In this document: piece by piece, positions 16,474-48,883 of the stretch
Numbering within the stretch: the first letter of the stretch is position 1
How the letters are laid out: each line of letters starts with the position of its first letter
DNA from: Alphaproteobacteria bacterium
GTDB taxonomy: Bacteria > Pseudomonadota > Alphaproteobacteria > Rickettsiales > SXRF01
Direction: 5' to 3'
Assembly: GCA_033763775.1 (NCBI GenBank)
Contig: JANRJW010000014.1
Coordinates: forward strand, 89,037 to 153,036
DNA: 64,000 bases
Notes under the pieces: generated by a model
Seen by the model: only the letters and a program-made list of their open reading frames with translations
What the model was told of the DNA's origin: nothing
Database searches by the model: none
Translations under genes and position numbers: made by a program

Positions 16474-16956
16474 CTAGTGCGCCGAAAGCACGGATGATAA
16501 GCGCTGGTGATAAAGCTCGGCCAGCTCAGCAATGCCGCGCTTGATGGCATCCTGCTCCGAAACATAAGCCGAGTAATACTGGTTGGGCAGATTGTTATAG
16601 CTGCTGACATGGCGCAGGCTGCCGCCAGCTACCGACTGAGTTTCGCCAATGCGGTAAAGCTTGTAGTTGGAAACTAGGTTCACGTTATAGCGAGTCACCG
16701 TGCCATCACGCGAAACGCCAAGGCCGGCGGTCGTAATCGCAAGATCTGCAACCAAACGATAGGTCGGATTCACCGGCACCGCGCCACCCGGATTCAGCTT
16801 ATCTTCCAGCTGAATCTGCAGCTGCTGGCGCTGCGAGCGCTCCTGCGCGCTGGCCTCCACCACCACCCCCGCCACCGGCGAAGCCGCCGCTGGCACAGCG
16901 CTTTTAGCGCCATACATAGGCTGAAAACCGCAGGCGGATAGTAGGAAACACGTCAT
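16474..16956 (-). CDS. lptE: LPS-assembly lipoprotein LptE (RlpB)
   Basis: MTCFLLSAC lipobox, then GFQPMYG. Position between leuS and holA. The start codon lies inside a repeat; alternative ATG at 16974. Confidence 0.65.
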   Translation of the reverse strand: MTCFLLSACGFQPMYGAKSAVPAAASPVAGVVVEASAQERSQRQQLQIQLEDKLNPGGAVPVNPTYRLVADLAITTAGLGVSRDGTVTRYNVNLVSNYKLYRIGETQSVAGGSLRHVSSYNNLPNQYYSAYVSEQDAIKRGIAELAELYHQRLSSVLSAH

Positions 16957-17023: not shown

Positions 17024-19588
17024 CTAACTAGCCACGACATTCACAATCCTGTTCGGCACCACGATGATTTTCCTGACCTCTTTATCCTTAAGCGCATCGC
17101 GCACGGTTTGCAACTCCATCACCACGCTTTCTGCCTTTTCTTTGGGCAGATCTTTGGCAAGCTGGATGGTGGTGCGCGTCTTGCCGTTAATCTGGATGGC
17201 AACGGTCACCTCATCCTCAGCAAGCAGCGCCGGGTCTGCTTTTGGCCATGGGCGCACCGACAGCTCGTCCTTGTGGCCGAGCTGCGACCAGCATTCTTCT
17301 GCAAGGTGCGGCAGGAACGGACAAAGAAGATGCAGCGCGGCTTCAAGCGCTTCTTTCATGACTTCCGGCGCAGCTTTGCCTGCACAGTCTTCCATCATGT
17401 TGGTCAGCTCGCGGATGCGCGCAATGGCCTTGTTGAAATGGAATTTCTCAATATCATCCGTCACCGCCGCAATGGTCTGGTGCGTTTTCTGACGCAAGTT
17501 TGCAGATGCATCATTTTCAACGGCAACTGCTGACGATGAGCTGGAAACCAACCGCCACACGCGCTGGATATAGCGCCACGCGCCTTCAATACCCGCATCC
17601 GTCCATTCGAGATCGCGATCCGGCGGCGAATCCGACAGCATGAAAAGGCGCGCCGCGTCGGCGCCGTAACTCTCGATGATATGGCGTGGATCCACCGTGT
17701 TTTTCTTGGATTTGCTCATCTTCTCGATGCGCCCGATAGTCACCGGTTTACCGGTTGCAATCTCTTTGCCTTCTGCCACCTCATCTGGCGAGAGCCATTT
17801 TCCTTCCGAAGATTTATAGGTTTCATGGCAGATCATGCCCTGCGTCTCTAAGCGTTTGAATGGCTCAGGCGGAACCTCATAACCACACTTGGCAAGAGCC
17901 CGCATAAAGAAACGCGAATAAAGCAAATGCAGCACCGCATGCTCAATGCCACCAATATAGCAATCCACCGGCAGCCATTTTTTCAAGGCATTAGGCTCTA
18001 GGGGATTGGGATCAGGGAGCGTTGCAAAGCGAGCAAAATACCAGGAGGACTCAAAGAACGTGTCAAACGTGTCTGTCTCACGCTCAGCGGGCTTGCCGCA
18101 GCTAGGGCAGGGGACGTGTTTCCATGTGGGGTGGCGCAAAAGCGGATTCCCCGGCTTATCAAACGTCACATCTTTGGGTAGCGCGACGGGCAGATCGGCC
18201 TCCGGCACGGGAACCACGCCGCAATCCTTGCAATGAATCACCGGAATCGGGCAGCCCCAGTAGCGCTGGCGGGAAATGCCCCAGTCGCGCAGGCGGTAAT
18301 TGATTTTTTCTTCGCCGCAGCCGATTTTTTTTAAAGCGTCTATCGCTTTTTTCTTGGCCTCAGTGACGTTTAGGCCGTTGAGGAAGTCGGAGTTGATGAG
18401 CGTTCCATCGCCTACATAAGGACCCTCACCCGCGGCGCTTTGCGCCGCTTCCCTCTCCCTGTCAGGGAGAGGGGTAGGGTGAGGGTGAACTACTGGCAGT
18501 ATCGGCAGCCCATATTTCTTCGCAAACTCATAGTCCCGCGCATCATGTGCCGGGCAGCCGAAAATCGCGCCGGTGCCGTAATCCATGAGCACGAAATTAG
18601 CCACATACAAAGGCACTTCGCGGCCATCAAACGGGTGAATGATTTTGAGCCCCGTATCAAAGCCTTTCTTTTCGGCTTTTTCGATGGCTTCTTCGGAGGT
18701 GCCGAGCTGGTTGCATTCGGCGATAAAAGTCGTGAGTCTCGAATTGCCAGTTGCCAGCTCTTTGGCAAGTGGATGGCCGGGTGAAATAGCGCAGAAACTC
18801 ATGCCGAAAATCGTGTCCGGGCGGGTAGTATAGATTTCGAGTTCTTCACTGGATGCCTGAGATTGGTGACTGACGACTTGCAACTTAAGCAGCGCGCCCG
18901 TCGACTTGCCAATCCACTTCTCCTGCATGATACGGACTTTGTCCGGCCACTCTTTAAGCGTTTCCAGCCCGGCAAGCAGCTCATCCGCACAATCAGAAAT
19001 ACGCAAAAACCACTGAGAGAGCCTCCGGCGCTCCACCAGCGCGCCCGAGCGCCAGCCGCGCCCATCCACCACCTGTTCGTTGGCCAGCACGGTATTATCA
19101 ACCGGATCCCAGTTCACTTCCGCTTCCTTGCGGTAGGCAAGCCCGGCTTCAAGGAATTTAAGGAAAAAAAGCTGCTCGTGCTTGTAATAATCCGGAAGGC
19201 AGGTGGCGAGTTCACGCGACCAATCATAAGAAAGGCCGATGAGCTTTAATTGCTCGCGCATGGTTTCGATATTTTTCAGCGTCCAGTCTTGCGGGTGGGC
19301 GCCGCGCTCAATCGCGGCATTCTCCGCCGGCAGACCAAACGCATCCCAGCCCATCGGGTGCAGCACATCATAGCCCTGCATACGGCGCGCACGCGCGATC
19401 ACATCACCCAGAGTATAGTTGCGCACATGCCCCATATGGATGTTGCCCGAAGGATAGGGAAACATCTCGAGGACGTAATATGAAGGGCGCGTTGCCGTGG
19501 ACGTCTGCGTTGTTTCAAAGGTGCGGTTTTGCTGCCAGTGGCGCTGCCACTTGGCTTCAGTTTCGCGGGCGTTGTAGCGTGGGGTCAT
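17024..19588 (-). CDS. leuS: leucine--tRNA ligase
   Basis: 854 aa. PYPSGNIHMGH (HIGH) and KMSKSKKN (KMSKS) motifs, collinear with LeuS. Confidence 0.97.
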   Translation of the reverse strand: MTPRYNARETEAKWQRHWQQNRTFETTQTSTATRPSYYVLEMFPYPSGNIHMGHVRNYTLGDVIARARRMQGYDVLHPMGWDAFGLPAENAAIERGAHPQDWTLKNIETMREQLKLIGLSYDWSRELATCLPDYYKHEQLFFLKFLEAGLAYRKEAEVNWDPVDNTVLANEQVVDGRGWRSGALVERRRLSQWFLRISDCADELLAGLETLKEWPDKVRIMQEKWIGKSTGALLKLQVVSHQSQASSEELEIYTTRPDTIFGMSFCAISPGHPLAKELATGNSRLTTFIAECNQLGTSEEAIEKAEKKGFDTGLKIIHPFDGREVPLYVANFVLMDYGTGAIFGCPAHDARDYEFAKKYGLPILPVVHPHPTPLPDREREAAQSAAGEGPYVGDGTLINSDFLNGLNVTEAKKKAIDALKKIGCGEEKINYRLRDWGISRQRYWGCPIPVIHCKDCGVVPVPEADLPVALPKDVTFDKPGNPLLRHPTWKHVPCPSCGKPAERETDTFDTFFESSWYFARFATLPDPNPLEPNALKKWLPVDCYIGGIEHAVLHLLYSRFFMRALAKCGYEVPPEPFKRLETQGMICHETYKSSEGKWLSPDEVAEGKEIATGKPVTIGRIEKMSKSKKNTVDPRHIIESYGADAARLFMLSDSPPDRDLEWTDAGIEGAWRYIQRVWRLVSSSSSAVAVENDASANLRQKTHQTIAAVTDDIEKFHFNKAIARIRELTNMMEDCAGKAAPEVMKEALEAALHLLCPFLPHLAEECWSQLGHKDELSVRPWPKADPALLAEDEVTVAIQINGKTRTTIQLAKDLPKEKAESVVMELQTVRDALKDKEVRKIIVVPNRIVNVVAS
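18423..18486. repeat. Family-B palindromic repeat in frame inside leuS
   Basis: ccctcaccc-gcggcgc-tttg-cgccgc-ttccctctccc-tgtc-agggagagggg-tagggtgaggg. Read on the minus strand as HPHPTPLPDREREAAQSAAGEG. Confidence 0.85.
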
Positions 19589-19597
19589 AAAAGTCTC

Positions 19598-19791
19598 GTC
19601 ATTCCCGCGACCTGTCCTGCGAAGCTTTAGCGAAGGAGGAAAGCGGGAATCCAGTTTTATCTCGTTTGTTTTTATCTAAGAGTAGACGCCAAATGTCTAC
19701 TGACATTTAGCTTTTCTGGATCCCGTGCTCGCATGACTGCTGACATGCTCCACGGGATGACGGGAGCCTAAGCGGCTTCGCCGCTAAGGCT
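19598..19791. repeat. Family-A composite element plus a perfect 11-bp hairpin in the leuS / DUF3576 gap
   Basis: gtcattcccgcg...aagcgggaatccag...tagacgccaaatgtctactgacatttagc...ggatcccgtg...cacgggatgac, then agcctaagcgg-cttcg-ccgctaaggct 6 nt past the DUF3576 gene stop. Confidence 0.85.
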
Positions 19792-19796
19792 TACCG

Positions 19797-20306
19797 TCAC
19801 TTCACATTTTTCACGCGTAGTTCACGCGCGCGGGTAAGGATGGTGTCTTCCAGCTTACGCTCGGTGGCTTTATCCACCGCCTGGTCACGCCACTGACCGC
19901 CTGAAAACTTCTGGCGAAATAATGTGATTTTTACGCCGTCTGCGCGCAGGGTCTTGTCGAGAATCAGCGCATTGGCTTTAAAGCGCTCGCCGGGAGTTTT
20001 GGGGTCTTCATACCACTCGGTGATAATCACGCCGCCAAAGGGATCGGCGGAGCTAAGCGGCATGAAAGAAAGCGTGTCCAGCGTGGCGCGCCACAGGAAG
20101 CTATTGACGCCGAGCGGCGAGTTATTTTCCTCGCCCTTCTTGCCGCCCGCCAGCACGATACCATCATCACCGGTGAGCTTGCCGCGGCCTTCCCGCAGCT
20201 GATCTTCCAGCGATTGCGGCAGACCAGCACGCTCGGTCTTAACATCCGAACAGGCAAGCAATGCAAGGGGAGCAAGGGGAGCAAGGGCAAATAACAAATA
20301 ACGCAT
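19797..20306 (-). CDS. DUF3576-family lipoprotein
   Basis: MRYLLFALAPLAPLALLAC lipobox; LWRATLDTLSFMPL...DPFGGVIITEWY is characteristic of alphaproteobacterial DUF3576. Confidence 0.7.
   Translation of the reverse strand: MRYLLFALAPLAPLALLACSDVKTERAGLPQSLEDQLREGRGKLTGDDGIVLAGGKKGEENNSPLGVNSFLWRATLDTLSFMPLSSADPFGGVIITEWYEDPKTPGERFKANALILDKTLRADGVKITLFRQKFSGGQWRDQAVDKATERKLEDTILTRARELRVKNVK
20263..20288. repeat. Tandem 9-mer (gcaagggga x2 plus gcaagggc) inside the DUF3576 signal peptide
   Basis: Direct repeat encoding APLAPLA. Confidence 0.7.
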
Positions 20307-20374
20307 AAGCGACTCCGTGTAGTTCGGGGTCGGAATGTAGTGAAAAGGAAAGGAGGGTGCAAGTAATTGATGAT

Positions 20375-20400
20375 CCCCTCTCCCCACTGGGGCGAGGAGG
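20375..20400. repeat. Family-B hairpin
   Basis: cccctctcccc-actg-gggcgaggagg. Confidence 0.6.
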
Positions 20401-20408
20401 ATTTGGAT

Positions 20409-20437
20409 AAAAAAAAGGGCGATCCGAAGATCGCCCT
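20409..20437 (-). terminator. Rho-independent terminator of the porin gene
   Basis: On the minus strand, gggcgatc-ttcg-gatcgccc is followed by an 8-T run about 30 nt after the porin stop. Confidence 0.75.
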
Positions 20438-21860: not shown

Positions 21861-22526
21861 ATGACATTGGTCAACCGCCTTACTGAGATCCGTGCAACAC
21901 TCGAAAAATCACGAATAAACTCCCCGCTAGCCGCCCCTGAAACATGCCTTTTAGCTGCCTCCAAAGGGCAGCCGGCTGAGCTGCTGGAGGAGGCGATAGC
22001 TCTGGGTATCCGTGATTTCGGTGAAAACCGCGTTCAGGAAGCTTATGATAAGTGGCCGCTGCTTAAAGAAAAATACCCTCACATCAGGCTGCATCTGATC
22101 GGCCCGCTGCAAACCAATAAGGTGAAAGATGCGCTCGGCCTGTTTGATGTGATCCAGACGGTGGATCGGGAGAAGCTCGCGCTCGCGCTGTCAAGGCTTC
22201 AGGCTTCAGGCTTCAGCCTTCAGGAAAAACAGTTTTACATACAGGTAAATACCGGCGAAGAGCCACAGAAAGCGGGCATTTTCCCGAAAGAAGCGGATGA
22301 TTTCATTCGTTTCTGCATCCACGATTTAAAGCTACCCATCATCGGGCTGATGTGCATACCGCCAGCGGATCAACCACCCGCGCCGCATTTTGCGCTGCTC
22401 AGGAATGTGGCGCTTACGCACGGCTTGAAAGAGCTATCGATGGGCATGTCCGGCGATTATGATATCGCCGCGAGGATGGGCTCAAGCTGCGTGCGGGTGG
22501 GGACGGCGTTGTTTGGTAGCCGGTAA
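21861..22526 (+). CDS. yggS: PLP-binding homeostasis protein, YggS family
   Basis: LLAASKGQP...FGENRVQE...LHLIGPLQTNKVK...QVNTGEEPQKAG...LSMGMSGDY. Confidence 0.85.
   Translation: MTLVNRLTEIRATLEKSRINSPLAAPETCLLAASKGQPAELLEEAIALGIRDFGENRVQEAYDKWPLLKEKYPHIRLHLIGPLQTNKVKDALGLFDVIQTVDREKLALALSRLQASGFSLQEKQFYIQVNTGEEPQKAGIFPKEADDFIRFCIHDLKLPIIGLMCIPPADQPPAPHFALLRNVALTHGLKELSMGMSGDYDIAARMGSSCVRVGTALFGSR
22195..22225. repeat. Tandem heptamer array (aggcttc x3, agccttc, agg) inside yggS
   Basis: Direct 7-nt periodicity, read as LQASGFSLQ. The same heptamer (as gaagcct) forms one arm of the priA element at 30683-30757. Confidence 0.8.
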
Positions 22527-22598
22527 TTGGAGCTTCGGTAATTAGTGATTGGAAGCCAGCAATTTTTCCAATTACCGAAGCTCCAATTACCAATCACC
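22522..22598. repeat. Heptamer-arm palindrome between convergent yggS and the 22594-23010 ORF
   Basis: taattggagcttcggtaatt pairs perfectly with aattaccgaagctccaatta (20 bp) across a 26-nt loop. The arms contain both genes' stop codons. Confidence 0.85.
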
Positions 22599-23010
22599 CC
22601 AGCTTGTGGCTGGCCTCATACTTCCCACTTACCGCTGCAAATAAATGTTTGCCGATATCGCCGCCAGTTTGCTGTTCAAAAATGCTGCTGGCAATGGCGG
22701 TGAATAAACCAAGCGGCCCACCAAATAAAGCGCCGCCCGCTATCTGCGCGCCTGTGGAGATCGCATCGCCCGTCATCTCGCGATAAGCGGTGGATACCAG
22801 CGGGATATGCTGGAGCGGATTAATGACATCCAGCAGATCGGCAAAGCTGTCAAAAAAATGATCGTTTTGAATATCCGGCGCGGTGGCCATGCGCGCCTGA
22901 TAGGGCGAGAGGCTACGCTCAGGCTGCGTCTGTGGTAGCGGATGAATAACAATAGGCGTGGTCATGGCGAATGCAGGAGCAAGGAGCGTGCCATCCGCCT
23001 TCGCCATCAT
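22594..23010 (-). CDS. hypothetical protein
   Basis: 138-aa ORF from the ATG at 23010. Gly-rich hydrophobic C-terminal half (GAQIAGGALFGGPLGLFTAIASSIF). No family recognised; the N-terminus overlaps a repeat. Confidence 0.45.
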   Translation of the reverse strand: MMAKADGTLLAPAFAMTTPIVIHPLPQTQPERSLSPYQARMATAPDIQNDHFFDSFADLLDVINPLQHIPLVSTAYREMTGDAISTGAQIAGGALFGGPLGLFTAIASSIFEQQTGGDIGKHLFAAVSGKYEASHKLG

Positions 23011-23112
23011 TCCCACGACCCGTTCGCCAAAGCTCTAGTATAGGAGGAAAGGGGGAATACAGTCATTCAATAGACGAAAAATGCCTGCTGACATTTTTAT
23101 TTTCTGGGATAA
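23007..23112. repeat. Degenerate Family-A composite element directly after the atpC stop
   Basis: catcattcccacgacccgttcgccaaagctctagtataggaggaaagggggaatacag...tagacgaaaaatgcctgctgacatttttattttctgggataac aligns by eye with 19598-19735. Confidence 0.75.
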
Positions 23113-23115
23113 CGG

Positions 23116-23355
23116 CTAGGCTGTCACCAATAACGTGCAGCGCTCTGGCATAACTTCTGCCACGCCGCCAGAAATCGCAAATTCTTTTTTCTCGCCGCTC
23201 GAAAGCTCAACGCTGACCGTGCCTTCCTTCAGCGTCGCAATCACTGGCGCGTGGCCAGACAGCACACCAAACTCGCCCTCAGAGCCGGGCACGCCAATAT
23301 ATTCTGCTTCGCCATCAAAGAGCGTTTTTTCGGGGGTGATAAGTTGGCATTTCAT
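23116..23355 (-). CDS. atpC: F1 ATP synthase epsilon subunit, N-terminal beta-sandwich domain only (79 aa)
   Basis: LITPEKTLFDGEAEYIGVPGSEGEFGVLSGHAPVIATLKEG...ISGGVAEVMPERCTLLVTA stop. Sits downstream of atpD. The C-terminal helical hairpin is absent. Confidence 0.8.
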   Translation of the reverse strand: MKCQLITPEKTLFDGEAEYIGVPGSEGEFGVLSGHAPVIATLKEGTVSVELSSGEKKEFAISGGVAEVMPERCTLLVTA

Positions 23356-23426
23356 AGTTGCTGGTTCCTAGTTGCTGGTTGCTGGTTATTAAATTGCTAG
23401 CAACTAGCAACCAATAACCAGCAACT
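23356..23426. repeat. Heptamer-arm palindrome in the atpD-atpC gap
   Basis: Left arm agttgctggttcctagttgctggttgctggttatt; right arm tagcaactagcaaccaataaccagcaact. Units are gttgctg/gttatt. Confidence 0.85.
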
Positions 23427-24879: not shown

Positions 24880-25791
24880 CTAAACGGCTTCTGCGCCGCT
24901 GATAATTTCGATGAGTTCTTTGGTAATCGCCGCCTGACGGGTGCGGTTGTATTTGAGGTTGAGTTTTTTGATCATATCGCCGGCGTTGCGCGTGGCATTA
25001 TCCATCGCGGTCATGCGCGCGCCCTGCTCGGAGGCAGCATTTTCCAGAAGCGCACGATACACCTGCACGCTTAAGTTTTTCGGCAGCAGCTCGGCGAGGA
25101 TGTCCTCCTCAGAGGGTTCGTAGTCGTAAGAAGTGGCGAGTGATGAGTGGTGAGTGGTGAGTGTGTCGTTGGAAGGTTTCTCGCCACTCGCTACTCGCCA
25201 CTCGCTACTCAAAGGAATAAGCTGCTGCCATGTCACTTCCTGCGCGATGGCGGATTTGAATTTGTTGTAGACGATGTGACACACATCAAACTCGCCGGCC
25301 GCAAACCACTCGCGAATCAGCAGCGCCACCGGCTCTGCATCCGCAAACGTCACTTTCTTTTTCGGCAGGTCGAAATCGCCCGCGAAATAAGGCTGAAATT
25401 CAAGGCGCATCATGTCGCGCCCTTTGCGACCCACATAAAGCAGCTTCACCTGCTTACCCTGCGCGACCAGCTCACGCGCCTTGCGACGCGCACTGCGCAC
25501 AATCGAGCTATTGAACGCACCGCAAAGGCCGCGATCACCCGTTGCCACCACAAGGAGAATTTTATCCTGCTTACCCGTTCCAACTAAAAACGGATTGGTG
25601 GAGGTGTCGCGCTGGGACGCAGCGAGGCTCGCAATCATGTGCTCCATGGCTTCCGCGTAGGGACGCGCATTTTCTGCCGCCTCTTTCGCACGGCGAAGTT
25701 TCGCCGCTGCCACCATCTTCATCGCTTTGGTGATCTTCTGCGTCGATTTGACCGACTTGATACGGACTTTAAGGTCTTTGAGGCTAGGCAT
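24880..25791 (-). CDS. atpG: F1 ATP synthase gamma subunit
   Basis: [35 protein letters not shown]...[11 protein letters not shown]. Confidence 0.92.
25132..25209. repeat. Heptamer-arm palindrome (GTGAGTG type), about 78 bp, in frame inside atpG
   Basis: Left arm agtggcgagtgatgagtggtgagtggtgagtg; right arm ctcgccactcgctactcgccactcgctact. Read as [26 protein letters not shown] sister copy is in priA at 31390-31472. Confidence 0.85.
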
Positions 25792-26015
25792 CAGAGTCTC
25801 AGTTCTTGGAGTTTGTGATTGCTCTGGTTTTCATAGGTAATTGAATCTCCCAACTGTTGCTTGGCATTGAGTAAATCAACGCCATAAACATCACCCTGGC
25901 CAGACATTTCAATAACCGCATCCTTGCAAATTTTTATCTTCTTTGTGTCATTATTTGGCGCGGCTTTGAATCGTATGTAGCCAAAATTCTTATCCATATC
26001 GTACATGATTTTCAT
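25791..26015 (-). CDS. DUF2283-like small protein
   Basis: 74 aa. [16 protein letters not shown]...[15 protein letters not shown] fits the DUF2283 pattern (M-I-YD...YI...G-IGIEIL-A). ATGA overlap with the upstream ORF and TGATG overlap with the atpG start. Confidence 0.6.
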
Positions 26016-26566
26016 TTGCGTCCCCTTTCAGGAATCGTCACGCGCTCATTCTCAGGAACGCCAAGCTCTTCTAGAAGCTTGTTTAGACCACCGACTAAAT
26101 CTTCGAGTGTTTTAGCGGCGATAAATTTGCTGTAATTTTCAGTTGTTGATGCACCGCGCGCTTCCATCTGCGCTTTTTTATCATCTTCTTCAACCGGCGT
26201 GAATGCCTCATCAAACTTGAAAGTCTTATGTTTAATTTCTGAGAGTCTTTTTTTCAGCTGAAGATTGATATTATGCAGCATCTCGTCTGCGTTATTATCA
26301 ATCGCATCGGCATGCTCGCGTGCCTCCTTTTCAGTCTTAAAAAGTGATTTGAAATGCTCTCTTGCTTGATCAAGCGATAACCCAATATCAAATTCCAGCG
26401 CAGGGCCGTCAGCAGAGTCGGTGAATTTTGTTTGGACCAGTTTATCCGTATCGAGATAAATGCCCGGCAACTCGCCAAGAGCCTTAAACGCGCGCGCGAG
26501 TCCCTGATGAAGCCGGCGATGCGTTTCATCAGTAATATCGGCTAGGTATTTTAATTCTTCGCTCAT
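26012..26566 (-). CDS. hypothetical acidic protein (184 aa), no recognised family
   Basis: ORF from the ATG at 26566, 4 nt after the atpA stop. Lower GC than the flanks. The ORF-track TTG at 26590 would overlap atpA. Confidence 0.55.
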   Translation of the reverse strand: MSEELKYLADITDETHRRLHQGLARAFKALGELPGIYLDTDKLVQTKFTDSADGPALEFDIGLSLDQAREHFKSLFKTEKEAREHADAIDNNADEMLHNINLQLKKRLSEIKHKTFKFDEAFTPVEEDDKKAQMEARGASTTENYSKFIAAKTLEDLVGGLNKLLEELGVPENERVTIPERGRK

Positions 26567-26570
26567 GCTA

Positions 26571-28100
26571 TCAGGCAAACCTTTTCGCAATCTGCATGAT
26601 GACTGTTTTCAGACGATCTTCGATGGCATCATCCAGCTTCTGACTTTTTTCAATGTCGCTGATGATGTCTTTGCTCGCACCGCGCAGCTCAGCCAGCAGC
26701 GCCTGCTCGAACTTGCCCACTTCTTTGGTTGGGATGCCATCCAGATAGCCTTTCACACCGGCATAAATCACGCAGACCTGCTCAGGCGTGGAAAGCGGCG
26801 AGTATTGCGGCTGTTTGAGCAGCTCGGTGAGGCGCTGGCCGCGCGCGAGCAGCTTCTGCGTTGCGGCGTCAAGGTCGGAGCCGAACTGGGCGAAGGCTTC
26901 CATCTCGCGGTACTGCGCGAGCTCAAGCTTGATCGAACCTGCCACCTGCTTCATCGCCTTAATCTGCGCGGCAGAACCCACGCGCGATACCGACAGACCC
27001 ACGTTCACCGCCGGACGCACGCCTTTGTAGAACAGGTCGGTCTCAAGGAAGATCTGGCCGTCGGTGATCGAGATCACGTTGGTGGGAATATAGGCCGAAA
27101 CGTCACCCGCCTGGGTTTCAATCACCGGCAGGGCGGTGAGGCTGCCCGCCTTCATATCATCCGACATTTTGGCGGCGCGCTCAAGCAGGCGCGAGTGAAT
27201 GTAGAACACGTCGCCCGGGTAAGCTTCGCGTCCCGGCGGACGGCGCAGCAGCAGCGACATCTGGCGATACGCCACCGCTTGCTTGGAAAGATCATCATAA
27301 ATGATCAGCGCATGCATGCCGTTATCGCGGAAATATTCACCCATCGCACAGCCCGTGTAAGGCGCGAGGAATTGCAGCGGCGCTGGCTCAGAGGCGGTCG
27401 CAGCCACCACGATCGAGTACTGCATCGCGCCTTGCTCTTCGAGCTTTTTCACCACCTGCGCTACCGTCGAGCGCTTCTGGCCGATACAGACATAAATACA
27501 ATAGAGTTTCTTGCTTTCGTCGGAGCCAGCGTTGGCCGCTTTCTGGTTAAGGATCGTATCAATCGCAATCGCGGTTTTGCCGGTCTGGCGATCGCCGATG
27601 ATGAGCTCCCTCTGGCCACGGCCAATCGGAATCAGCGAATCAATCGCCTTGATACCAGTCGACATCGGCTCATGCACCGATTTACGCGCGATAATGCCCG
27701 GCGCTTTCACTTCCACACGCGCACGGGTGACATCTTTCAGGGGGCCTTTGCCATCAATCGGATTACCGAGCGCATCCACCACGCGGCCAAGCAGACCCTT
27801 GCCCACCGGGCAGTCCACAATCGCGCCGGTACGCTTCACCGTGTCGCCTTCTTTTACCTGACGATCATCACCGAAAATCACCACGCCGACATTGTCAGAC
27901 GCAAGGTTCAGCGCCATACCTTTCAGACCACCCGCAAACTCCACCATCTCGCCGGCCTGCACATTTTCAAGGCCGTAGATGGTGGCGATACCGTCACCCA
28001 CCGAGACCACCTGGCCGGTTTCCGACAGCTCTGCCTGCGGGCTGAATGATAAAATCTGCGCCTTGAGGATGTTTGAAATTTCCGATGCCTTGATATCCAT
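26571..28100 (-). CDS. atpA: F1 ATP synthase alpha subunit
   Basis: 509 aa. [15 protein letters not shown] Walker A; conserved throughout. Confidence 0.98.
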
Positions 28101-28141: not shown

Positions 28142-28222
28142 GTTGCGTAGGTTTCGTATGTTGCGCAGGTTGCGAATGATTTAAACCTACGAAACATTCG
28201 AAACATGCGAAACCTACGCAAC
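28142..28222. repeat. Heptamer-arm palindrome in the atpH-atpA gap
   Basis: gttgcgtaggtttcgtatgttgcgcaggttgcgaatg / cctacgaaacattcgaaacatgcgaaacctacgcaac. The right arm supplies the last two codons and the stop of atpH. Confidence 0.85.
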
Positions 28223-28853: not shown

Positions 28854-29795
28854 CTAGAATGGCGCCTTGACCATCATCGTGCAGGCAGAATAGACATGAA
28901 CTGAGTCCGGATCATAGCCTTGCGTATTTTGCACATTATAACGCGCGGGGATTTCATCCGTAAGGCAATAGCGCGAATTAGGTCCGGGTGAGCCAAAATA
29001 ATCTGGTATATTGCTAGAAAAATACGGCATATACCAGCTCAAGACCTCCCAGTTATTATACGAGGCGGCGCGCGCAATGCCGCTGAGCGGCATACCATCA
29101 TCGATTTTGCTGTCAAACGCATAGGCCTGCGGCGCGGTAAGCACCGTTATAACCCCGCTATCCGGTATGTCGGCAGAAAGCAGATAATAATGCCCGACAT
29201 CGGGTAAATACCCAACCCCGCCTATCTCCAGGTCATTCACATCATAATAGCTGAGGCTCCACATGGCAGGAGAGCCGTTAAACGATCCGCCATAGACCGA
29301 TGGAAAATAAACCCTGCCTTGATTAGGCGTGCTAGAATGGTAAACTTTTAACCCCTGAATCAGCCCGGCCTCCTGCATCCACCACAATGCGTGCTGCACC
29401 TCATGGGCGCCAACCGCACCGCCTGGCAGCGCTGTATTAAAGGCTGTGTGATTATGAATGATACTATTACCGTCGCCATCATATGCGCCGCCAGCCGTGA
29501 TGGCTGTGCCGGCAGGCGAAAACTGCGTGAAACCATAGCGGGCGGCATTGGCACAATCACCGGGCAGGCAGCGATATTTGGACTGAAATGCATGCACCGC
29601 GCTATTGAGCTCTTCAATTTCACCCACGGCCTTGCGAGTGACCCCCGCCTCCATGAGCGCATTGCCAGCCACCACACCACCCAACAACAACCCAATGACC
29701 AGCAACACAATCGACACTTCAACCAGCGTGAAACCACGCTTGGCGCTAGCGAGCGCCGTTCTGGCAGGTGTTGATGTGGTTCTGGTGGGTAGCAT
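28854..29795 (-). CDS. type IV pilin / pseudopilin-like protein with prepilin N-terminal methylation motif
   Basis: ...SAKRG/FTLVEVSIVLLVIGLLLGG (class III signal, Glu5) followed by an approximately 280-aa domain of no recognised family. Start placed at the ATG at 29795. Confidence 0.7.
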   Translation of the reverse strand: MLPTRTTSTPARTALASAKRGFTLVEVSIVLLVIGLLLGGVVAGNALMEAGVTRKAVGEIEELNSAVHAFQSKYRCLPGDCANAARYGFTQFSPAGTAITAGGAYDGDGNSIIHNHTAFNTALPGGAVGAHEVQHALWWMQEAGLIQGLKVYHSSTPNQGRVYFPSVYGGSFNGSPAMWSLSYYDVNDLEIGGVGYLPDVGHYYLLSADIPDSGVITVLTAPQAYAFDSKIDDGMPLSGIARAASYNNWEVLSWYMPYFSSNIPDYFGSPGPNSRYCLTDEIPARYNVQNTQGYDPDSVHVYSACTMMVKAPF

Positions 29796-29863
29796 GCAAT
29801 AAAGGTTCAGGCGTGTTGCTTTTTCTATATAACGAGAAAAAGAATAAATGATTAACAAGCCGC

Positions 29864-31987
29864 CTACAAAAACCCCACCGGATCGATATCTATCTTAATA
29901 CGCACGGAAGAGGGCGGTTTTACCGATTCCAACCAGCCGCTCATCAGCTCCGGCAGATTCACCTTGCGATCCGCGCGCACGAGAAGGCGCCAGCGATAGA
30001 GGCCGCGCAGGCGATAAAGCGGAGCAGGGGCGGGGCCTAGTAGGCGGATGACGGATGACGGATGACGGATGACAGGAAAACTAGCCGCAAGCTGCTTGGC
30101 TGTTTTGATGACCGCATCTTCTTTGCTGCCTTCCACAATTACGGCGGCAAGGCGAGCAAAAGGCGGCATCTTCGCGCTTTCGCGGGCGGCAAGTTCGGCC
30201 GCCACAAACTGATCGCGATCATTTGACGCCAGCGCCTGCATGACCGGATGATCCGGCTGGTAGCTCTGCAGATAGACCACGCCCGGGATTTGCTCACGCC
30301 CAGCGCGGCCAGACAGCTGGTGAAGCAGCTGATAGGTTTTTTCCGCCGCGCGCAGATCGCCGCCGCCAAGGCCTAAATCGCCATCCACCACCCCCACCAC
30401 CGAAAGCCCGCCAAAATGATGCCCCTTGGCGATCATCTGCGTGCCAATCAGCAGGTCGAGTTTTTTTTGTTCCATATCCGAAATAATTTGCGCCGCTTCC
30501 TTATTACCCGTCAGCTGGTCACTCGCCATCACCGCGATGCGGGCTGTTGGAAACAGCGCGCGCGCCTCCTCTTCAATGCGCTCCACACCGGGGCCACACG
30601 CCGCCAGCGACTCTTTCTCACCGCACGCCGGACAGACGGGTGGCAGCGGCTCGCGGTGGTGGCAGTGGTGACATTGGAGGAAGGGCTTTGGGCTTTGGGC
30701 TTTGGGCTCTGGTAAAGCAAAATCTCCCTGAAGCCTGGAGCCTGAAGCCTGAAGCCCATGCAACACCAGCCAGCTTGAACACTCCGCGCACTCAAAGCGG
30801 TGGCCGCAATGGCGACATAGCACCAACGGCGCATAGCCGCGCCGGTTGAGGAAAAGGAGCGCCTGCTCGCCGCGCGCGATGGCACTCGCCACTGCATCGC
30901 GCAGCTTTGGTGAAATGAACTGCGTGGCCGGCATTTTCTCGAGCCGCATATCGATCAGCTGCGTGGTGGGCAGGCAGGCGCCGCCGTGGCGCGCGGGCAG
31001 GCGCAGCTCGGCATATTTTCCTTGCTGGGCATTCAATACACTCTCCAGCGAAGGCGTGGCTGAGGCCAGTACCACCGGTATTTTTTCAAACCGCGCCCGC
31101 GAAACCGCCATATCGCGCGCATGGTAAATCACCTGGTCTTCCTGCTTGTAGGCCTGGTCGTGCTCTTCATCCACCACGATCAGCTTCAGGTTTCGGTAGG
31201 GAAGAAACAACGCTGAGCGCGCGCCCACCACCACCGGCGCAGCGCCGCTGGCAATCGCTTTCCACGCCTCACGTTTTTGTGCAGGCGTGACATGCGAATG
31301 CCATACCAGCGGGCGAAAGCCAAAGCGCGCTTCAAACCGCGCCATCCACTGCACGGAAAGAGCGATTTCGGGAAGGAGAATGAGAATTTGTGAGTGACGA
31401 GTGGCAAGTGGTGAGTGGTGAGTAATAGTATCTTTTTCTTTCTCGCCACTCGCCACTTGCCACTCGCCACTCAGCGCCTGCGCGATCGCCTCAAAATACA
31501 CCTCCGTCTTGCCTGAGCCAGTAACGCCATCGAGCAGCGTGACGGAAAAACCAGCTGCTAGTTTTTGGATGAGCGCATCCGCCGCCGCACGCTGGGCAGG
31601 CGAGAGCGTGGCAAGTTGGTAAGAATGGGATTGGGGATTCGATGCATTCTTTTTTCTTCCCCTAACCCCTAATCCCAAATCCCTAATCCCTAGCGGCAGC
31701 GCCATTTTCAGCATCAGGCCGGCCGGCGCACAATTATACCACGCCGCCCATTTTATAAATTCAATGAAATGCGGAGCAAAAGATGGCGCATCCAGCTTCT
31801 CGATCACCGCTTTTAGTTTCGCCTGCGGAATGTTTGCCGTGCCCGCACCCAGCACCAGACCAAGCGACGAGGCGCGCCCAAACGGCACACGAACGAGATC
31901 GCCACGTTCAAGCGCCATCCCATCTGGCACTACGTAGTCAAACCCGTGCGCCACGCCGGTAGGAAGTAGCACCTCAACTTGTTTCAT
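29864..31987 (-). CDS. priA: primosomal replication-restart helicase PriA
   Basis: [14 protein letters not shown] Walker A, DEEHD, Cys-rich zinc region [14 protein letters not shown]...CHHCHH...CPACG. Confidence 0.9.
30046..30073. repeat. Four perfect tandem heptamers (ggatgac x4) inside priA
   Basis: Direct reading. The complement gtcatcc equals the Family-A terminus. Read as IRHPSSVIR. Confidence 0.9.
30683..30757. repeat. Heptamer-arm palindrome, about 75 bp, inside the priA zinc-finger region
   Basis: gggcttt x3 plus gggctct, spacer, then gaagcct/ggagcct/gaagcct/gaagccc. Read as [25 protein letters not shown] between the two Cys clusters. Confidence 0.8.
31390..31472. repeat. Heptamer-arm palindrome (GTGAGTG type) in frame inside priA
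   Basis: gtgagtgacgagtggcaagtggtgagtggtgagt / ctcgccactcgccacttgccactcgccactc. Read as [25 protein letters not shown]. Confidence 0.85.
31622..31693. repeat. Heptamer-arm palindrome (TTAGGGG/ATTGGGG type), about 72 bp, inside priA
   Basis: aatgggattggggattcgatgcatt / cccctaacccctaatcccaaatccctaatccctag. Read as [24 protein letters not shown]. Confidence 0.8.
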
Positions 31988-32049: not shown

Positions 32050-32706
32050 ATGAAATTCTTTGTCGATACCGCCGATATTGCTGAAATCCGTGATCTCGCC
32101 GCCACCGGCCTGCTCGACGGCGTGACCACTAACCCAACACTTGTGGCCAAATCCGGCCGCGATTTTTTCGAGGTGCTGAAAGATATTTGCGCGGTGGTGA
32201 CCGGGCCGGTCTCCGCCGAAGTGACCGCCACCGACACGGACGGCATGATCAAAGAAGGCGAAAAGCTTGCGCGCATCGCCGACAACATCACCATCAAACT
32301 GCCGATGACCTGGGATGGGCTGAAAGCATGCCGCCATTTTTCGAGCAAGAACATCATGACCAACGTCACGCTGTGCTTCTCCGCGCCGCAGGCGCTGCTC
32401 GCCGCCAAGGCCGGCGCAACCTTTGTGTCGCCGTTTGTCGGCAGACTGGATGATATCGGCGAGGTGGGCATGAAGCTGATCGAGGATATCTGCACCATCT
32501 ACAAGCAGTATGATGCGTTGGAAACGCAGGTCTTGGTTGCAAGCGTGCGAAACCTGCAGCACATCACCGACGCCGCGAAACTGGGCGCGCATGTGGCGAC
32601 CATCCCACCAAAAGTGCTGCGCGACATGATTCACCACCCGCTGACCGACAAGGGACTCGCCACCTTCCTTGAGGATTGGAAGAAAACAGGGCAGAAAATT
32701 GCTTAA
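32050..32706 (+). CDS. tal: transaldolase, short type 3B (fructose-6-phosphate aldolase-like fold)
   Basis: [36 protein letters not shown]...KLPMTWDGL...[11 protein letters not shown]. Confidence 0.85.
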
Positions 32707-32708
32707 TT

Positions 32709-32772
32709 GTCATCCCGACTAAGCGGAGCGCATAGAGGGATCCTAAGATCCCTCGACGACGCTCGGGATGAC
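32709..32772. repeat. Family-A element (64 bp), intergenic
   Basis: gtcatcccga...gagggatc-ctaa-gatccctc...tcgggatgac; nested palindrome with inverted termini. Confidence 0.9.
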
Positions 32773-32788
32773 AGAATGCAGGAAATAG

Positions 32789-33520
32789 ATGAGTGCAAAA
32801 CCAACCATCCAAAACGCCCTCACCGAAGCCGATATCCGCGCCTACCTTAAGGCGCACCCACAATTCCTGCGCAACAACCCCGATATCCTGACTGATATCG
32901 CCTCACCATCGCGCGATCTCGGCGGCGGGGTGATTGATTTTCAGCAGTTCATGGTGAAAAACCTGCAATCCACCAGCCGCGATTTGCAAAGCAAATATGA
33001 CCTCCTCGTCGAATATTGCCGCGACAATCTTTCCTCGCAGCAGCAGGTGCATGAGGCCGCGCTGAAACTGGTGCGCGCCAAGAGCATCGAACAGCTGCTG
33101 GAAATCATTGCGCTGGATCTTGTCAGTTTGTTTGGTGTCGATGTGGTGCGCCTCGCCATGGAGTCCGATATTCAGGTGGACACCTCCTACGGCGAAAGCG
33201 ATTTTTCCGGCATCGTCTTCATCGCCCCCGGCACCTGTGACGCCGCGCTGGGCAAAGGTAAGCGCGTGAAACTGGTGGCAGATAGCACGCGCCATCCACC
33301 CGCCGGCTTTGATGAGATTTTTGCTGAATGTGACACGATGATCGAAAGCTGCGCGCTGCTGCGTCTCGATATGGACAGCATCGACCGGCAGGTCATGCTG
33401 GCATTTGGTGTGCGCAGCAAAGAGCGCTTCCACCCCGGCCAAGGCATTGAACTGCTGAATTTTCTTGCGCAGGTAGTGGCGCATCAGCTGGATCGCTACT
33501 TGGACGAAATGACCGTATGA
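32789..33520 (+). CDS. DUF484-family protein
   Basis: LTEADIRAYLKAHPQFLRNNPDIL N-terminus. Sits directly upstream of xerC and overlaps it (ATGA). Confidence 0.75.
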   Translation: MSAKPTIQNALTEADIRAYLKAHPQFLRNNPDILTDIASPSRDLGGGVIDFQQFMVKNLQSTSRDLQSKYDLLVEYCRDNLSSQQQVHEAALKLVRAKSIEQLLEIIALDLVSLFGVDVVRLAMESDIQVDTSYGESDFSGIVFIAPGTCDAALGKGKRVKLVADSTRHPPAGFDEIFAECDTMIESCALLRLDMDSIDRQVMLAFGVRSKERFHPGQGIELLNFLAQVVAHQLDRYLDEMTV

Positions 33521-35559: not shown

Positions 35560-38262
35560 ATGCCACTGACACTGCAAGACCTGAAAGAGGCTACATCTCA
35601 AGCGAGATTCAATCGTAAAGAGTTAATCAGTTTAATTGAAGAGCATGGGCTGGTTGAGCGCGGCGGAAACAATAACTGGGGCGTGCCAGGACGCGCCGAT
35701 ATTAATCCGGTTTATATCCCTGATTACACAGAAATTAACAGCACCGTATGGAACAAGCTACTTAGAATCATGGAGCAGCTTGAAAAAGAAAAAGCGCCCA
35801 CCGAGACCGCCCCCAAAGCACCGCAGTGGCTGCATGATGAGTTGAAGAATATGCCCGAATGGGAGCTGGATGAAAGCCGGCTAGGCGAAAAGAGCGTCAC
35901 CCTGCGTAGCAAAGCCGCGCCGGAATTCGCCTTTGACGTGCCTCTGAGTGGCAATGATGTCATCGATAAAAAGACTTTCGATCTTTATGTTCAAAGCTAT
36001 GCAGGAAGTGAAAAAGAGCTGCTAAGTCTGACCAAATATCTTAAGCTACTTAGCGGACTTGATGAAAATGAGTGGAAGCTGGAGCGCAGCGCGCAAGGCA
36101 CGAAGCTCGTATCGCAGATGCAGGATATTCCGGACATTGAGCTAACCGGCAGGCCAGATCAACTGATCAAAAAAACAAACGACGCCAAAGAATATGCTGA
36201 GCTTTATCGAAATGATTTAGCGAAAAACCCAGCCGCAGCGCCTGAGCCCGCCTCCCCCGCGCCGCCAGAGCCTGAGATCCGCGCAGCGAAAAAGCTAGCC
36301 CCTGGCGCGGTGAAATCACCCGAGGAAGGTCAGCATGTGCTGATTCTTGACAGCAGCGCGATCATTGAGCTGGGGTCTTTTACTTTCGGTAAAAATGGCA
36401 ACAAGACCTCCCTGCTTGATATCGTGAAAGCCACGCAGAAGCTGCCGAATGTGAGCAAAATCATCATCCCCGATTATGTGGCGGATTTTGAAGTGCGCGG
36501 GCAGGGCACGCATTACGACGAAAAAGGCCAGCTGCTGGTGAGCGAAAGCATTCACGATAAAAAGAATTACGGCAATGACTATAAAGACGTGCGCGATAAC
36601 TTCCAGCGGCTCATCCACAATGCCGTGCGCCGTCATGTCGCGGCGGATGGCACGGTGGAATTTCTACATAATGCGGATGTGCCTGCTGAGCAGGTGAACA
36701 CCAGCATCGTCATCTGGGAGACACCCAAAGGCCGCGAATATGGCGAAGATATCTATACCAAGCTGAACGCAGGCAAGGTTCAGGAGGTGTTTGATAGCTA
36801 TGTCAGCAAGCCGGACGACCGAAGCTCGCGAAACAACTACGGTGAGCAGCAAATTGAGGCCATTTGCAACGACCGGGATTTTTACGCTGCGCCGGTGCAT
36901 ATCATCACCTCTGACAGGAACTACATCAGGGAAAGTAAGAACAATAAAACCGCAAACAAACAAAACAAAGCTTACCGCACCACGTTTGAATATCTTGATG
37001 CGGAGCTGTCATCGCGCGGACAGGAGCATCGCAATAAAATTGGCATGAGCTTCCAAAATGCTAAGGAAGCCTATGAGTATCTTCTGAACGACAGTAACGG
37101 AAAAATGGGAAAGGTTCAGGATGATAGTAGGCACATAACATCTCCCATCAGGCCTTTGATTCAAGACGGTATATTGGCTGCTGAAGCGGCGGGAGCCGCC
37201 GCCGCTGCGAGCCGACCCACTGTAACGCCAGCGGTAGCGCCGCGCCCAACTGTTGCGTTAAAGCCAGTGCGGGTGCCGGTGGTGCCTGCTGCAACGCCTG
37301 CTCCAACGGCTGTTCCAACTCCAGCTCCGGTGCCACCGCCCGCGGCGCGCACACTGGACGTTTCGCCGGAAGGCAGAGCATTTGGCGATTTGCTGCTGCG
37401 ACTGATGAATGATCGCGACCTTAACCGCTCTGGTTTTGCCAAGCTGATAAATGAGAACCTGCCACCGGATCAGTCCATGGATATTCAAACCGTGCGGGGT
37501 ATTTTATCTGGTAAGGAGCCGGTGAGCGAGGCACTGCTGGAGGTTATCGAAACCATCGCGATTGATCAGAACCCGCAGATCAATAACAAGGAAGATGCAA
37601 AGCAGGAGCTGCGGCAGGCTTGGGACAAAGCATGTGCGCAGCAGACGAACATGGCCAGCAGACAAGCTGTTGATAGCGCGGGTTACCATGGCTTTGGTGA
37701 TAAAGTTGCCGCGCTGTTTGAAAAGCGCAACGTGACCGACCCGGAAAAAATTGCAAGTGCCATCCGCGAGCAGATTGGCGTGCTGAAGCCGACCGAGCCG
37801 ACGATTGATAGCGCGCTGATACAAAAGATATTTGATGGTGAGCACCTGCCTTCGCCGGGGCTTGCTGCCGCGCTGCGCAAAGCGCTGGATAACCCCCCGG
37901 GTTTTGATGACGCCTATCAGAAAGCGCGTAGCGCGAAACCTCAGCCGCAAGAACTTTCAAAACTGCGTGAAAAAATCAAAAAACACTTCACGGATCTCGA
38001 TGAAACACTCGGCCTTAACGATATCGGCGTAGCAGGTAGAATTGGCCAGAAGCGCAATGTCGGCAGCTTGCTGGGCAAAGGCGGAAATGTGAGCTTTGAT
38101 GCCGAGCAGCTGGGAAGCTTTGGTTCAAATCTGAGCGGCTGGATGGAACGCGAACTCGGGGCAACACCCACGCAGGTCGCCGCGTTTCAAGCGGACTGGG
38201 AGCTTTTCAGCCGCGCCTATCTCGAAGAGCAGCAGAAGAAGCAGCTGAGCGCCGCGAAGTAG
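35560..38262 (+). CDS. large orphan protein (900 aa) with central PIN-like nuclease motifs, Pro/Ala linker and C-terminal HTH-like modules
   Basis: HVLILDSSAIIELG ... IIIPDYVADFEV ... GEQQIEAICNDRDF..VHIITSDRNYI resembles the PIN acidic-residue pattern. The Pro/Ala-rich linker is about residues 540-600. LLRLMNDRDLNRSGFAKLIN..DIQTVRGILSG is XRE-HTH-like. No overall family recognised. Confidence 0.55.
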   Translation: MPLTLQDLKEATSQARFNRKELISLIEEHGLVERGGNNNWGVPGRADINPVYIPDYTEINSTVWNKLLRIMEQLEKEKAPTETAPKAPQWLHDELKNMPEWELDESRLGEKSVTLRSKAAPEFAFDVPLSGNDVIDKKTFDLYVQSYAGSEKELLSLTKYLKLLSGLDENEWKLERSAQGTKLVSQMQDIPDIELTGRPDQLIKKTNDAKEYAELYRNDLAKNPAAAPEPASPAPPEPEIRAAKKLAPGAVKSPEEGQHVLILDSSAIIELGSFTFGKNGNKTSLLDIVKATQKLPNVSKIIIPDYVADFEVRGQGTHYDEKGQLLVSESIHDKKNYGNDYKDVRDNFQRLIHNAVRRHVAADGTVEFLHNADVPAEQVNTSIVIWETPKGREYGEDIYTKLNAGKVQEVFDSYVSKPDDRSSRNNYGEQQIEAICNDRDFYAAPVHIITSDRNYIRESKNNKTANKQNKAYRTTFEYLDAELSSRGQEHRNKIGMSFQNAKEAYEYLLNDSNGKMGKVQDDSRHITSPIRPLIQDGILAAEAAGAAAAASRPTVTPAVAPRPTVALKPVRVPVVPAATPAPTAVPTPAPVPPPAARTLDVSPEGRAFGDLLLRLMNDRDLNRSGFAKLINENLPPDQSMDIQTVRGILSGKEPVSEALLEVIETIAIDQNPQINNKEDAKQELRQAWDKACAQQTNMASRQAVDSAGYHGFGDKVAALFEKRNVTDPEKIASAIREQIGVLKPTEPTIDSALIQKIFDGEHLPSPGLAAALRKALDNPPGFDDAYQKARSAKPQPQELSKLREKIKKHFTDLDETLGLNDIGVAGRIGQKRNVGSLLGKGGNVSFDAEQLGSFGSNLSGWMERELGATPTQVAAFQADWELFSRAYLEEQQKKQLSAAK

Positions 38263-48877: not shown

Positions 48878-48883
48878 TATTTT

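Follow-up and report, generated by a model that had tools for sequence, protein, structure and literature searches.

Introduction

Rickettsia palindromic elements (RPEs), reportedly described by Ogata et al. in 2000 and by Claverie and Ogata in 2003, are ~100–150 bp long and fall into families with consensus sequences, not tandem heptamers; as far as is known, they mostly keep their positions from one species to the next and decay slowly, and we know of no transposase that moves them. In the present study, we analyzed a 64-kb stretch of alphaproteobacterial DNA (contig JANRJW010000014.1 of assembly GCA_033763775.1; hereafter the window), in which the genes for the F1 γ-subunit of ATP synthase (atpG) and for the primosomal helicase (priA) each contain a hairpin built from tandem heptanucleotides. 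The two elements are like RPEs (which appear in PMC10969869 and PMC1458961) in being small palindromes that lie in frame within unrelated, often essential, alphaproteobacterial genes, and in encoding a shared peptide of a few tens of residues (~25 here) in surface loops of the proteins, the function of which is not abolished. Their length and architecture (79–83 bp, heptamers) differ from those of RPEs, a distinction made by description, without alignment to RPE reference sequences, and the 55% G+C of the window and its nearest homologues, which come from uncultured ‘Alphaproteobacteria/Pseudomonadota’ metagenome-assembled genomes (MAGs), do not place the host in Rickettsia or Rickettsiaceae. 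Also unlike RPEs, the cassettes of this lineage are 60–99 bp of 7-nt arrays, exchanged for others at a given site between genomes 92–94% identical, and their GAGTGRC unit occurs far outside Rickettsiales.

Heptanucleotide repeats of bacteria date back to 1990 as a known phenomenon, and many genomes have them in excess; we are aware of no explanation of their origin and of no mechanism for their formation. The published families, mainly intergenic and regarded as putative regulators or G-quadruplex formers, include the STRRs of cyanobacteria, GGGGAYT of Nostoc and GGGAATC of Xanthomonas, with 70–75 inverted pairs in Xanthomonas (PMC4692102), elements of four heptanucleotides both within and between genes of Geobacter metallireducens (PMC2700814), and the TAACTGA repeats of Beggiatoaceae (PMC4679880). 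Those of Xanthomonas and Nostoc (PMC4692102) and of G. metallireducens (PMC2700814) provide precedent for arrays of ~4 units, for inverted pairs, and for copies inside genes. The elements of the window share with such tandem heptanucleotide repeats a head-to-tail unit of 7 nt, ~4 units per array, an excess of period 7 (within the 64-kb window), many dispersed copies with convergent, inverted pairs, the location of some copies in genes, and a patchy distribution across phyla; the unit of one family in the window, GGGGATT, is also that of the Nostoc repeat. In the literature searched, we found no description of in-frame hairpin pairs in core housekeeping proteins, of cassettes that replace one another between the same codon boundaries in genomes 92–94% identical, or of a GAGTGRC family across phyla, and 14-mers of the array gave no match when searched in full texts. 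A third described class comprises the repetitive extragenic palindromic sequences (REPs) and their paired, hairpin-forming derivatives (REPINs), extragenic elements whose conserved hairpin is recognized by a cognate REP-associated tyrosine transposase (RAYT) (PMC3116915, PMC2817692, PMC8266576). They resemble the present elements as short hairpins that form within-genome families and evolve by copying inside the genome, but they are not tandem heptamers, and the two focal elements lie inside open reading frames (ORFs).

Here we show that the atpG and priA segments are repeats at the DNA level and inserts of derived origin, located in surface loops not present in other Alphaproteobacteria. The cassettes are RPE-like in their effect on the protein and STRR-like in their build. 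Both segments are probably non-autonomous heptanucleotide-repeat hairpin DNA drawn from a genome-wide population of cassettes and copied between pre-existing cassette sites.

Results

Structure of the atpG and priA hairpins

The atpG gene (24,880–25,791, minus strand) encodes an intact, full-length γ-subunit of 303 amino acids, and priA (29,864–31,987, minus strand) an intact helicase of 707 amino acids with four heptamer cassette sites. The atpG hairpin cassette extends over 25,132–25,210 (minus strand), with a left arm at 25,180–25,210 composed of 4.4 copies of GAGTRGC, a right arm at 25,132–25,162 composed of 4.4 copies of CTCAYCA, and a loop of 17 nt at 25,163–25,179; its codons (25,129–25,209) specify residues 195–221 of the γ-subunit. 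The cassette at the second priA site (31,392–31,472, minus strand) has a left arm at 31,442–31,472 (4.4 copies of GAGTGGC), a right arm at 31,392–31,422, and an AT-rich loop of 19 nt at 31,423–31,441, and encodes residues ~173–199 of PriA. Tandem Repeats Finder assigned period 7 and 4.4–4.9 copies to all four arms, concordant with our own scan. Folded as RNA, the hairpins reach –36.9 kcal/mol (z, –6.6) in atpG and –57.2 kcal/mol (z, –10.5) at priA site 2. The arm 17-mer GAGTGGCGAGTGGCGAG (≤3 mismatches) matches the window 14 times where 0.33 matches would be expected, and the two elements account for 12 of the 14. These three analyses bear out an earlier description made without database searches (the sequence-only reading), according to which both genes have palindromes at these coordinates with heptamer arms around a short loop. 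Chance resemblance or an assembly artefact, for which nothing but the low sequence complexity speaks, is already refuted by the match count and the folding scores, and by the same cassette type in independent NCBI, ENA, and JGI assemblies, always within intact full-length genes.

The similarity between the two elements holds on formal alignment by MAFFT, with 81% column identity that lies nearly all within the arms; the loops are unrelated, so that only the heptamer arms are common. All ten arm-versus-arm mismatches in the two hairpins are transitions (10/10). The further proposal that the elements are sister copies of one palindrome was not sustained as a case of direct descent, considering the unrelated loops and the presence of GAGTGRC arrays in genomes labeled as about a dozen phyla.

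Being dispersed, small, palindromic, and grouped in within-genome families, the elements recall classical transposase-driven miniature elements, i.e., transposable elements of the miniature inverted-repeat type (MITEs) or REPs/REPINs moved by an insertion sequence transposase or a RAYT encoded elsewhere. The arms are inverted repeats, yet a MITE combines these with a flanking target-site duplication, and no such direct repeat was found beside either focal element or beside the atpG cassettes of seven relatives. Furthermore, the arms consist of plain tandem heptamers in many different sequences, the elements lack a unique conserved core or loop, arrays often stand alone with no partner arm, the 64-kb window encodes no transposase or RAYT, and REPs are extragenic by definition. 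Nested hairpins in other phyla, described below, suggest insertion into loops; on balance, we regard an origin of this kind as highly improbable.

Insertion sites in the host proteins

Mapping onto the γ-subunit and PriA structures, as the sequence-only reading had envisaged, placed both segments as inserts in loops. The alignment with Escherichia coli PriA (PDB ID: 6dcr) extends to query residue 172 and resumes at residue 197, with residues 173–196 facing a gap of ~1 residue; the insert is C-terminal to the helicase Walker-A (GSGKTEVY) segment. In the Paracoccus γ-subunit (PDB ID: 5dn6), the loop is 11 residues shorter than that found here. The only long low-confidence stretch in the AlphaFold model of the γ-subunit comprises residues 198–223 (predicted local distance difference test score, <50). 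In all eight clade genomes (8/8), a hairpin cassette of 60–99 nt (z, –3 to –10) is located in atpG exactly between the codons for PL and Y[DE]YEP, whereas the atpG genes of 42 other alphaproteobacterial loci have only 33–57 nt from IP(L) to Y/F-E-x-E-P, a loop that forms no hairpin (fold z, –2.7 to +1.6). The cassette occupies the whole loop, with no remnant of an ancestral one. As a control, 735 kb of DNA around atpG from 80 other Alphaproteobacteria contained period-7 arrays in the two nearest relatives alone, three in total, of which two are in the same atpG loop; these loci, metagenome contigs retrieved with an atpG query from relatives 52–69% identical, constitute a negative control and are not informative on recent turnover.

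The γ-subunit of phototrophs, i.e., that of cyanobacteria and chloroplasts, has a specific insertion of 30–39 amino acids at residues 198–222, a conserved β-hairpin that regulates MgADP inhibition (PMC8390522). Judging from the numbering and from the alignment with the chloroplast γ-subunit, which breaks at query residue 200, this insertion is located in approximately the same Rossmann-domain loop as the atpG cassette (198–222 versus 195–221) and is of similar length (30–39 versus 27 amino acids). The phototroph insertion is conserved and folded, whereas the cassette found here is variable among sister genomes and predicted to be disordered. It is conceivable that the structure or the peptide is itself selected, either as an RNA hairpin acting in processing, stability, or translational pausing within the atp operon and at other loci, or as a loop regulating the enzyme in the manner of the phototroph β-hairpin. 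Besides the shared loop (PMC8390522), the occupation of the atpG position by some hairpin throughout the clade, despite replacement of its sequence, and the hairpins at the atpH/atpA and atpD/atpC junctions would fit this explanation. Cassettes of the same kind, however, occupy unrelated genes and loops (priA at four sites, mnmE, yggS, and leuS), sister genomes have unrelated peptides at one and the same site, disorder is predicted for the insert, and the hairpins have no Rfam match (a gathering-threshold scan of the window returned one tRNA only). Moreover, in all of the coding heptamer cassettes (11/11) the sense strand forms a weaker fold than does the antisense strand, the difference being 2–17 kcal/mol, with arm mismatches that appear as C·A in the mRNA but as G·U on the opposite strand, which argues against a selected mRNA hairpin; five intergenic hairpins show no consistent bias between the strands. 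Selection for structure or peptide thus appears an unlikely explanation.

Translation of the arrays

Since 7 and 3 are coprime, a tandem 7-nt array runs through all three frames every 21 nt and gives the same cyclic 7-residue peptide in each of them: (GAGTGGC)n is read in any frame as cyclic EWRVASG, and its complement as ATRHSPL. The observation that both elements are translated in the same frame on the minus strand is therefore correct, but it is automatic for a period of 7 and provides no evidence of common descent. GAGTGGC and its complement are stop-free in every frame, as are ~50% of all heptamers on both strands, and freedom from stops is accordingly a necessary but weak filter.

An idealized module peptide searched against 5.8 billion proteins gave only 25 matches, all of them ‘hypothetical proteins’ of 31–76 amino acids with no Pfam domain, from Isosphaeraceae, Photobacterium, Vibrio, Bacteroidetes, and Chloroflexi, which look like spurious gene calls on repeat DNA. 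A homologous protein domain was rejected as the source of the shared segment, because these tiny Pfam-less proteins alone match the peptide. We infer that EWRVASGEK...HHSPLAT is a passive, presumably neutral translation of (GAGTGGC)n and its complement and not a functional protein module. As regards annotation, neither the ‘shared peptide’ nor the small ‘hypothetical proteins’ of other phyla appear to be protein families; they seem to be artefacts of repeat translation.

A different repeat shows the same pattern of one peptide in atpG and priA. This other cassette family, with peptides of the form QRNEEMKN...SS(I/V)(L/P)QF(L/S)(N/S)SSH, is found in a second atpG loop near residue 60 (homologues P0008, P0042, and P0050) and at priA site 2 of homologues P0137, P0151, and P0163.

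Turnover of cassettes among close relatives

Relatives were compared over stretches of 6–21 kb and the source genome over 64 kb. The genome L001 (GCA_947459535.1) is syntenic with the window and 92–97% identical in most aligned blocks, and the alignment breaks mostly at hairpin elements. A second sister assembly of the source genome is GCA_964654615.1. Outside the cassette, the atpG genes of the window, L001, and L204 are 92–94% identical, yet they contain three unrelated cassettes between the same codon boundaries: the GAGTRGC hairpin in the window, a non-heptamer double hairpin in L001 (of a family repeated elsewhere in that genome), and a GC-rich hairpin in L204, with another, unrelated GC-rich hairpin in L205. 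The GAGTGRC type of the window is present at this site in L003 and L206 (67–73% identical). Comparison of orthologues in part bore out the refutation named in the sequence-only reading (the same segment in orthologues of unrelated taxa), in that the orthologues P0007 and P0008 (68–70% identity) have the same cassette family at the same site, while relatives 88–91% identical have unrelated cassettes. These results show that the atpG site is a hot spot with cassette turnover, not ancestral protein sequence.

Other sites behave similarly. At priA site 2, the window has GAGTGGC, L001 has CAGTGGA, and L205 has TAGGCAT/AATGCCC, and sites 3 and 4 likewise differ among these three genomes. In the yggS loop, the window and L204 have (AGGCTTC)4, L001 has a hairpin of CAGTGGA, and L205 has one of GTCTCCA. 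Families also reappear at other places in a sister genome: CAGTGGA is found in three genes of L001 (priA, yggS, and leuS), and TCATCCG, which is at priA site 4 in the window, forms an intergenic hairpin downstream of yggS in L001.

It might be argued that the cassettes converged in place, through local slippage or expansion of a chance heptamer and fold-back duplication, the shared heptamer merely reflecting the few units that are allowed or favored. The same heptamers do turn up in phyla that are not related (GAGTGRC, and GGGGATT both in the window and in Nostoc; PMC4692102), loops are never shared, none of GAGTGGC, CAGTGGA, and GGGGATT has a stop codon in any of the six frames, and the two arms of priA site 3 have each been homogenized to a different heptamer (GGCTTCA and AGCCCAA), relatives having mixed units. 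The stop filter is weak, however, as about half of all heptamers pass it on both strands, and slippage leaves the exclusive enrichment of period 7 unexplained; families recur at other sites in sister genomes; and the wholly different cassettes of three sisters 92–94% identical, non-heptamer elements among them, imply changes too fast for mutation and homogenization. Convergence in place is, in our view, improbable. From the unshared loops and the separately homogenized arms of priA site 3, it is suggested that writing, conversion, or copying acts on the ~31-nt array as its unit and not on the hairpin as a whole.

Two further kinds of small element were encountered in the same comparison. One has ends of the GTCATCC...GGATGAC type and two internal hairpins, and is located at 32,702–32,910 and 19,725–19,797 of the window; in L001, it is found at 7714–7830, 10,905–11,036, 16,550–16,647, and 17,224–17,325 and as the atpG cassette, at gene junctions, two leuS-internal sites, and the atpG hot spot. 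The other is a hairpin of the form CCCTCTCCCC...GGGGAGAGGG with GGGTGAGGG-like repeats (300–420, 18,412–18,492, and 20,360–20,410 of the window), which varies between the window and L001.

Heptamer arrays in the window

The sequence-only reading had singled out atpG and priA, but neither gene is special: with four sites in priA alone, the window contains ~14 heptamer arrays at ~10 loci, composed of six hairpin pairs and four single arrays of several heptamer families. Strict period-7 arrays number eight, compared with none for periods 5, 6, and 8–12 and none in shuffled sequences. An array typically spans ~31 nt (~4.4 units), and two inverted arrays with a loop of 13–25 nt make up a hairpin. 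Both focal elements and at least five further arrays are inside intact ORFs.

In priA, site 1 (31,659–31,692, minus strand) is a single array of 4.7 copies of TAGGGAT that encodes DLGLGVRG and is conserved in L001. Site 3 (30,683–30,756, minus strand), in the zinc-binding region, consists of four copies of GGCTTCA, a loop, and four copies of AGCCCAA, the arms being complementary at 5/7 positions, and represents an insert of 21 residues relative to E. coli PriA. Site 4 (30,043–30,073, minus strand) is a single in-frame coding array of four TCATCCG units. Single arrays are also located inside mnmE (9322–9352, plus strand; 4.4 copies of CCCCAAT/GCCCAAT, belonging to the GGGGATT family as does priA site 1) and in a yggS-like gene (22,191–22,223, plus strand; 4.4 copies of AGGCTTC, the heptamer of the left arm of priA site 3, encoding RLQASGFSLQ). 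Intergenic hairpins are found at 2315–2387, with (AGTGGCT)/(CACTAGC) heptamers whose unit includes stop codons, at 22,522–22,591, where a perfect 22-bp hairpin (GGTAATTGGAGCTTCGGTAATT) has a (CGGATGA) heptamer hairpin as its counterpart in L001, and at 48,788–48,879, with (AGGGATT)/(CCTAATG) heptamers. Within the atp operon, the atpD/atpC junction (23,356–23,426, minus strand) has a hairpin of GTTGCTG heptamers, and the atpH/atpA junction (28,142–28,222, minus strand) one of 9-mers (GTTGCGTAG) that is common to L205, with another element in L001. A weak array of 2.7 copies of ACGCCAC followed by 3.8 copies of GCCA was also noticed in the ParB linker (14,693–14,734).

Several families recur in the window: GAGTGGC at two loci (atpG and priA site 2), AGGCTTC at two (the yggS-like gene and priA site 3), and the GGGGATT type at three (mnmE, priA site 1, and 48,788). 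According to our own arithmetic, at least five coincident heptamer pairs are observed among the ~10 loci as against ~0.08 expected, taking ~590 stop-free classes (~1170 classes up to rotation and strand, multiplied by 50%). Such recurrence of one heptamer within a genome, far above chance, points to copying or templating. The claim that the two segments can only derive from mobile or templated DNA is thus upheld as regards their nature as DNA repeats, their derived insertion, and their recurrence within the genome, and copying between loci is what we infer from them.

Other known structures were considered and rejected. The intergenic hairpins are not intrinsic terminators, as they are followed by no U-tract in the sequences inspected; the arrays do not have the spacer-repeat architecture of a CRISPR array; and the sites do not behave as targets of a diversity-generating retroelement, whole cassettes being replaced with no adenine-specific change.

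Occurrence outside the lineage

When 185,579 species genomes were scanned for exact matches to AGTRRCGAGTRRCGAGAAA, at least 120 loci were found, those listed not including the source genome, where a naive estimate for 596 Gb gives ~70 by chance. Among the matches listed, to which the following host statements also refer, nearly all are in longer (AGTGRCG)n arrays, ~1/5 have an inverted partner nearby, and 13 genomes give two or three matches each as compared with ~0.01 expected; the matches are therefore not due to chance. GAGTGRC arrays are thus found, often in several copies, in genomes labeled as about a dozen phyla, which include Chlorobi (among them the isolate Prosthecochloris ethylica, with three matches), Planctomycetota, Acidobacteriota, Aminicenantes, Verrucomicrobiota, Nitrospirae, Chloroflexota, Latescibacterota, and Bacteroidota, as well as Delta-, Beta-, Gamma-, and Alphaproteobacteria. 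In 845 kb of unrelated motif-bearing genomes, we counted 116 period-7 arrays against 4–9 for each of periods 4, 5, 6, and 8, made up of ~50 different units and with a median array length of 31 nt. Judging from the peptide search, the arrays of other phyla appear to be mostly intergenic; 48 of 122 matches are within stop-to-stop frames of at least 200 amino acids, an ambiguous measure in these G+C-rich genomes.

Nested hairpins were noticed in L013, L030, and L122 (Pyrinomonadaceae) and in L103 (Bacteroidales), in which a whole hairpin of another heptamer (GTGAATC/GTAAATC) comes next, on the inside, after an outer arm of (AGTGACG)n. This nested architecture suggests insertion into hairpin loops.

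Other features of the window

The genes of the window form an ordinary region of the oriC-proximal type, with mnmE-mnmG-rsmG-parAB, the atp operon, priA, a xerC-like gene, and mutL. In this clade, the atp operon collects small gene cassettes between its cistrons. The insert of the window (25,791–26,590) consists of a 74-amino-acid ORF (DUF2283-like by eye), the stop codon of which overlaps the atpG start, and a 192-amino-acid ORF. Other genomes have a DUF4258/DUF2283 pair (L001, 9365–10,008), an NTP_transf_2/HepT pair (L204, 1172–1899), or a 23S_rRNA_IVP gene (L205, 12,854–13,249; L206, 12,953–13,339). The ε-subunit seems to be split or truncated (window, 22,594–23,356; L001, 12,611–13,382), in that relatives have after atpD a 79-amino-acid ORF with the ATP-synt_DE_N domain only and then a separate ORF of ~140 amino acids (22,594–23,016 in the window) with no Pfam match. 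Between priA and atpH, the window has a 334-amino-acid ORF with a prepilin-type N-terminal methylation motif (28,854–29,858) that is absent from L001, where the interval measures 92 nt instead of 1034 nt. A 900-amino-acid ORF (35,560–38,262) has no Pfam match at E ≤ 0.001.

Discussion

The reading that we consider probable, with appreciable room for doubt, is that heptanucleotide-repeat hairpins of a genome-wide cassette population have been copied into atpG and priA. The cassettes would encode nothing needed for their own spread, and their sites would be limited to gene junctions and permissive surface loops of proteins. Arrays of heptamer families resident in the genome would be copied or templated into sites already holding a cassette, with turnover much faster than point substitution, and whole cassettes would also be replaced by other hairpin elements. 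The survivors in genes would be those with a length that is a multiple of three and no in-frame stops, in a loop that tolerates 20–30 extra disordered residues.

Several observations weigh against this reading. Some hairpin is present at one atpG position in all eight clade genomes, which is also readable as selection for structure. The differences at priA site 3 look partly like divergence in place followed by homogenization within the array, and not every difference needs copying between loci. As the same heptamers are found in unrelated phyla, some units may arise or persist preferentially, which would weaken the argument from coincidence. A Pfam scan of the 53 ORFs in the 64-kb window found no transposase, reverse transcriptase, or RAYT. 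Finally, no donor–recipient pair identical including the loop was found, and copying is inferred from the shared heptamers only.

A more far-reaching idea, to which we assign little probability, is that a dedicated, so far unrecognized process operating in many phyla writes templated heptamer tracts of ~31 nt. In one possible version, telomerase-like break healing, driven by a reverse transcriptase or a polymerase, would extend both 3′ ends with the same repeat. Healing of this type would explain the inverted arms of equal length, the unrelated loops at the junction, and the loss of the ancestral loop, as well as repeated breakage and re-writing at one fragile hairpin site; templated writing would further explain the genome-specific repertoire of heptamers and the occasional arms of two families. 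If it exists, the process reaches essential genes in this lineage and continually makes new peptide loops. That the γ insertion of phototrophs also arose by templated heptamer writing is speculation.

The lineage offers a tractable handle on heptanucleotide repeats, with heptamers in core genes at fixed codon boundaries and sister genomes that differ there only in the cassette. Clean before and after states at many sites should allow the unit, the rate, and the target rules of the copying to be read directly. In these bacteria, repeat DNA is seen to make and exchange surface loops of 20–30 residues in essential proteins, one of which is approximately the loop that serves regulation in the γ-subunit of phototrophs.

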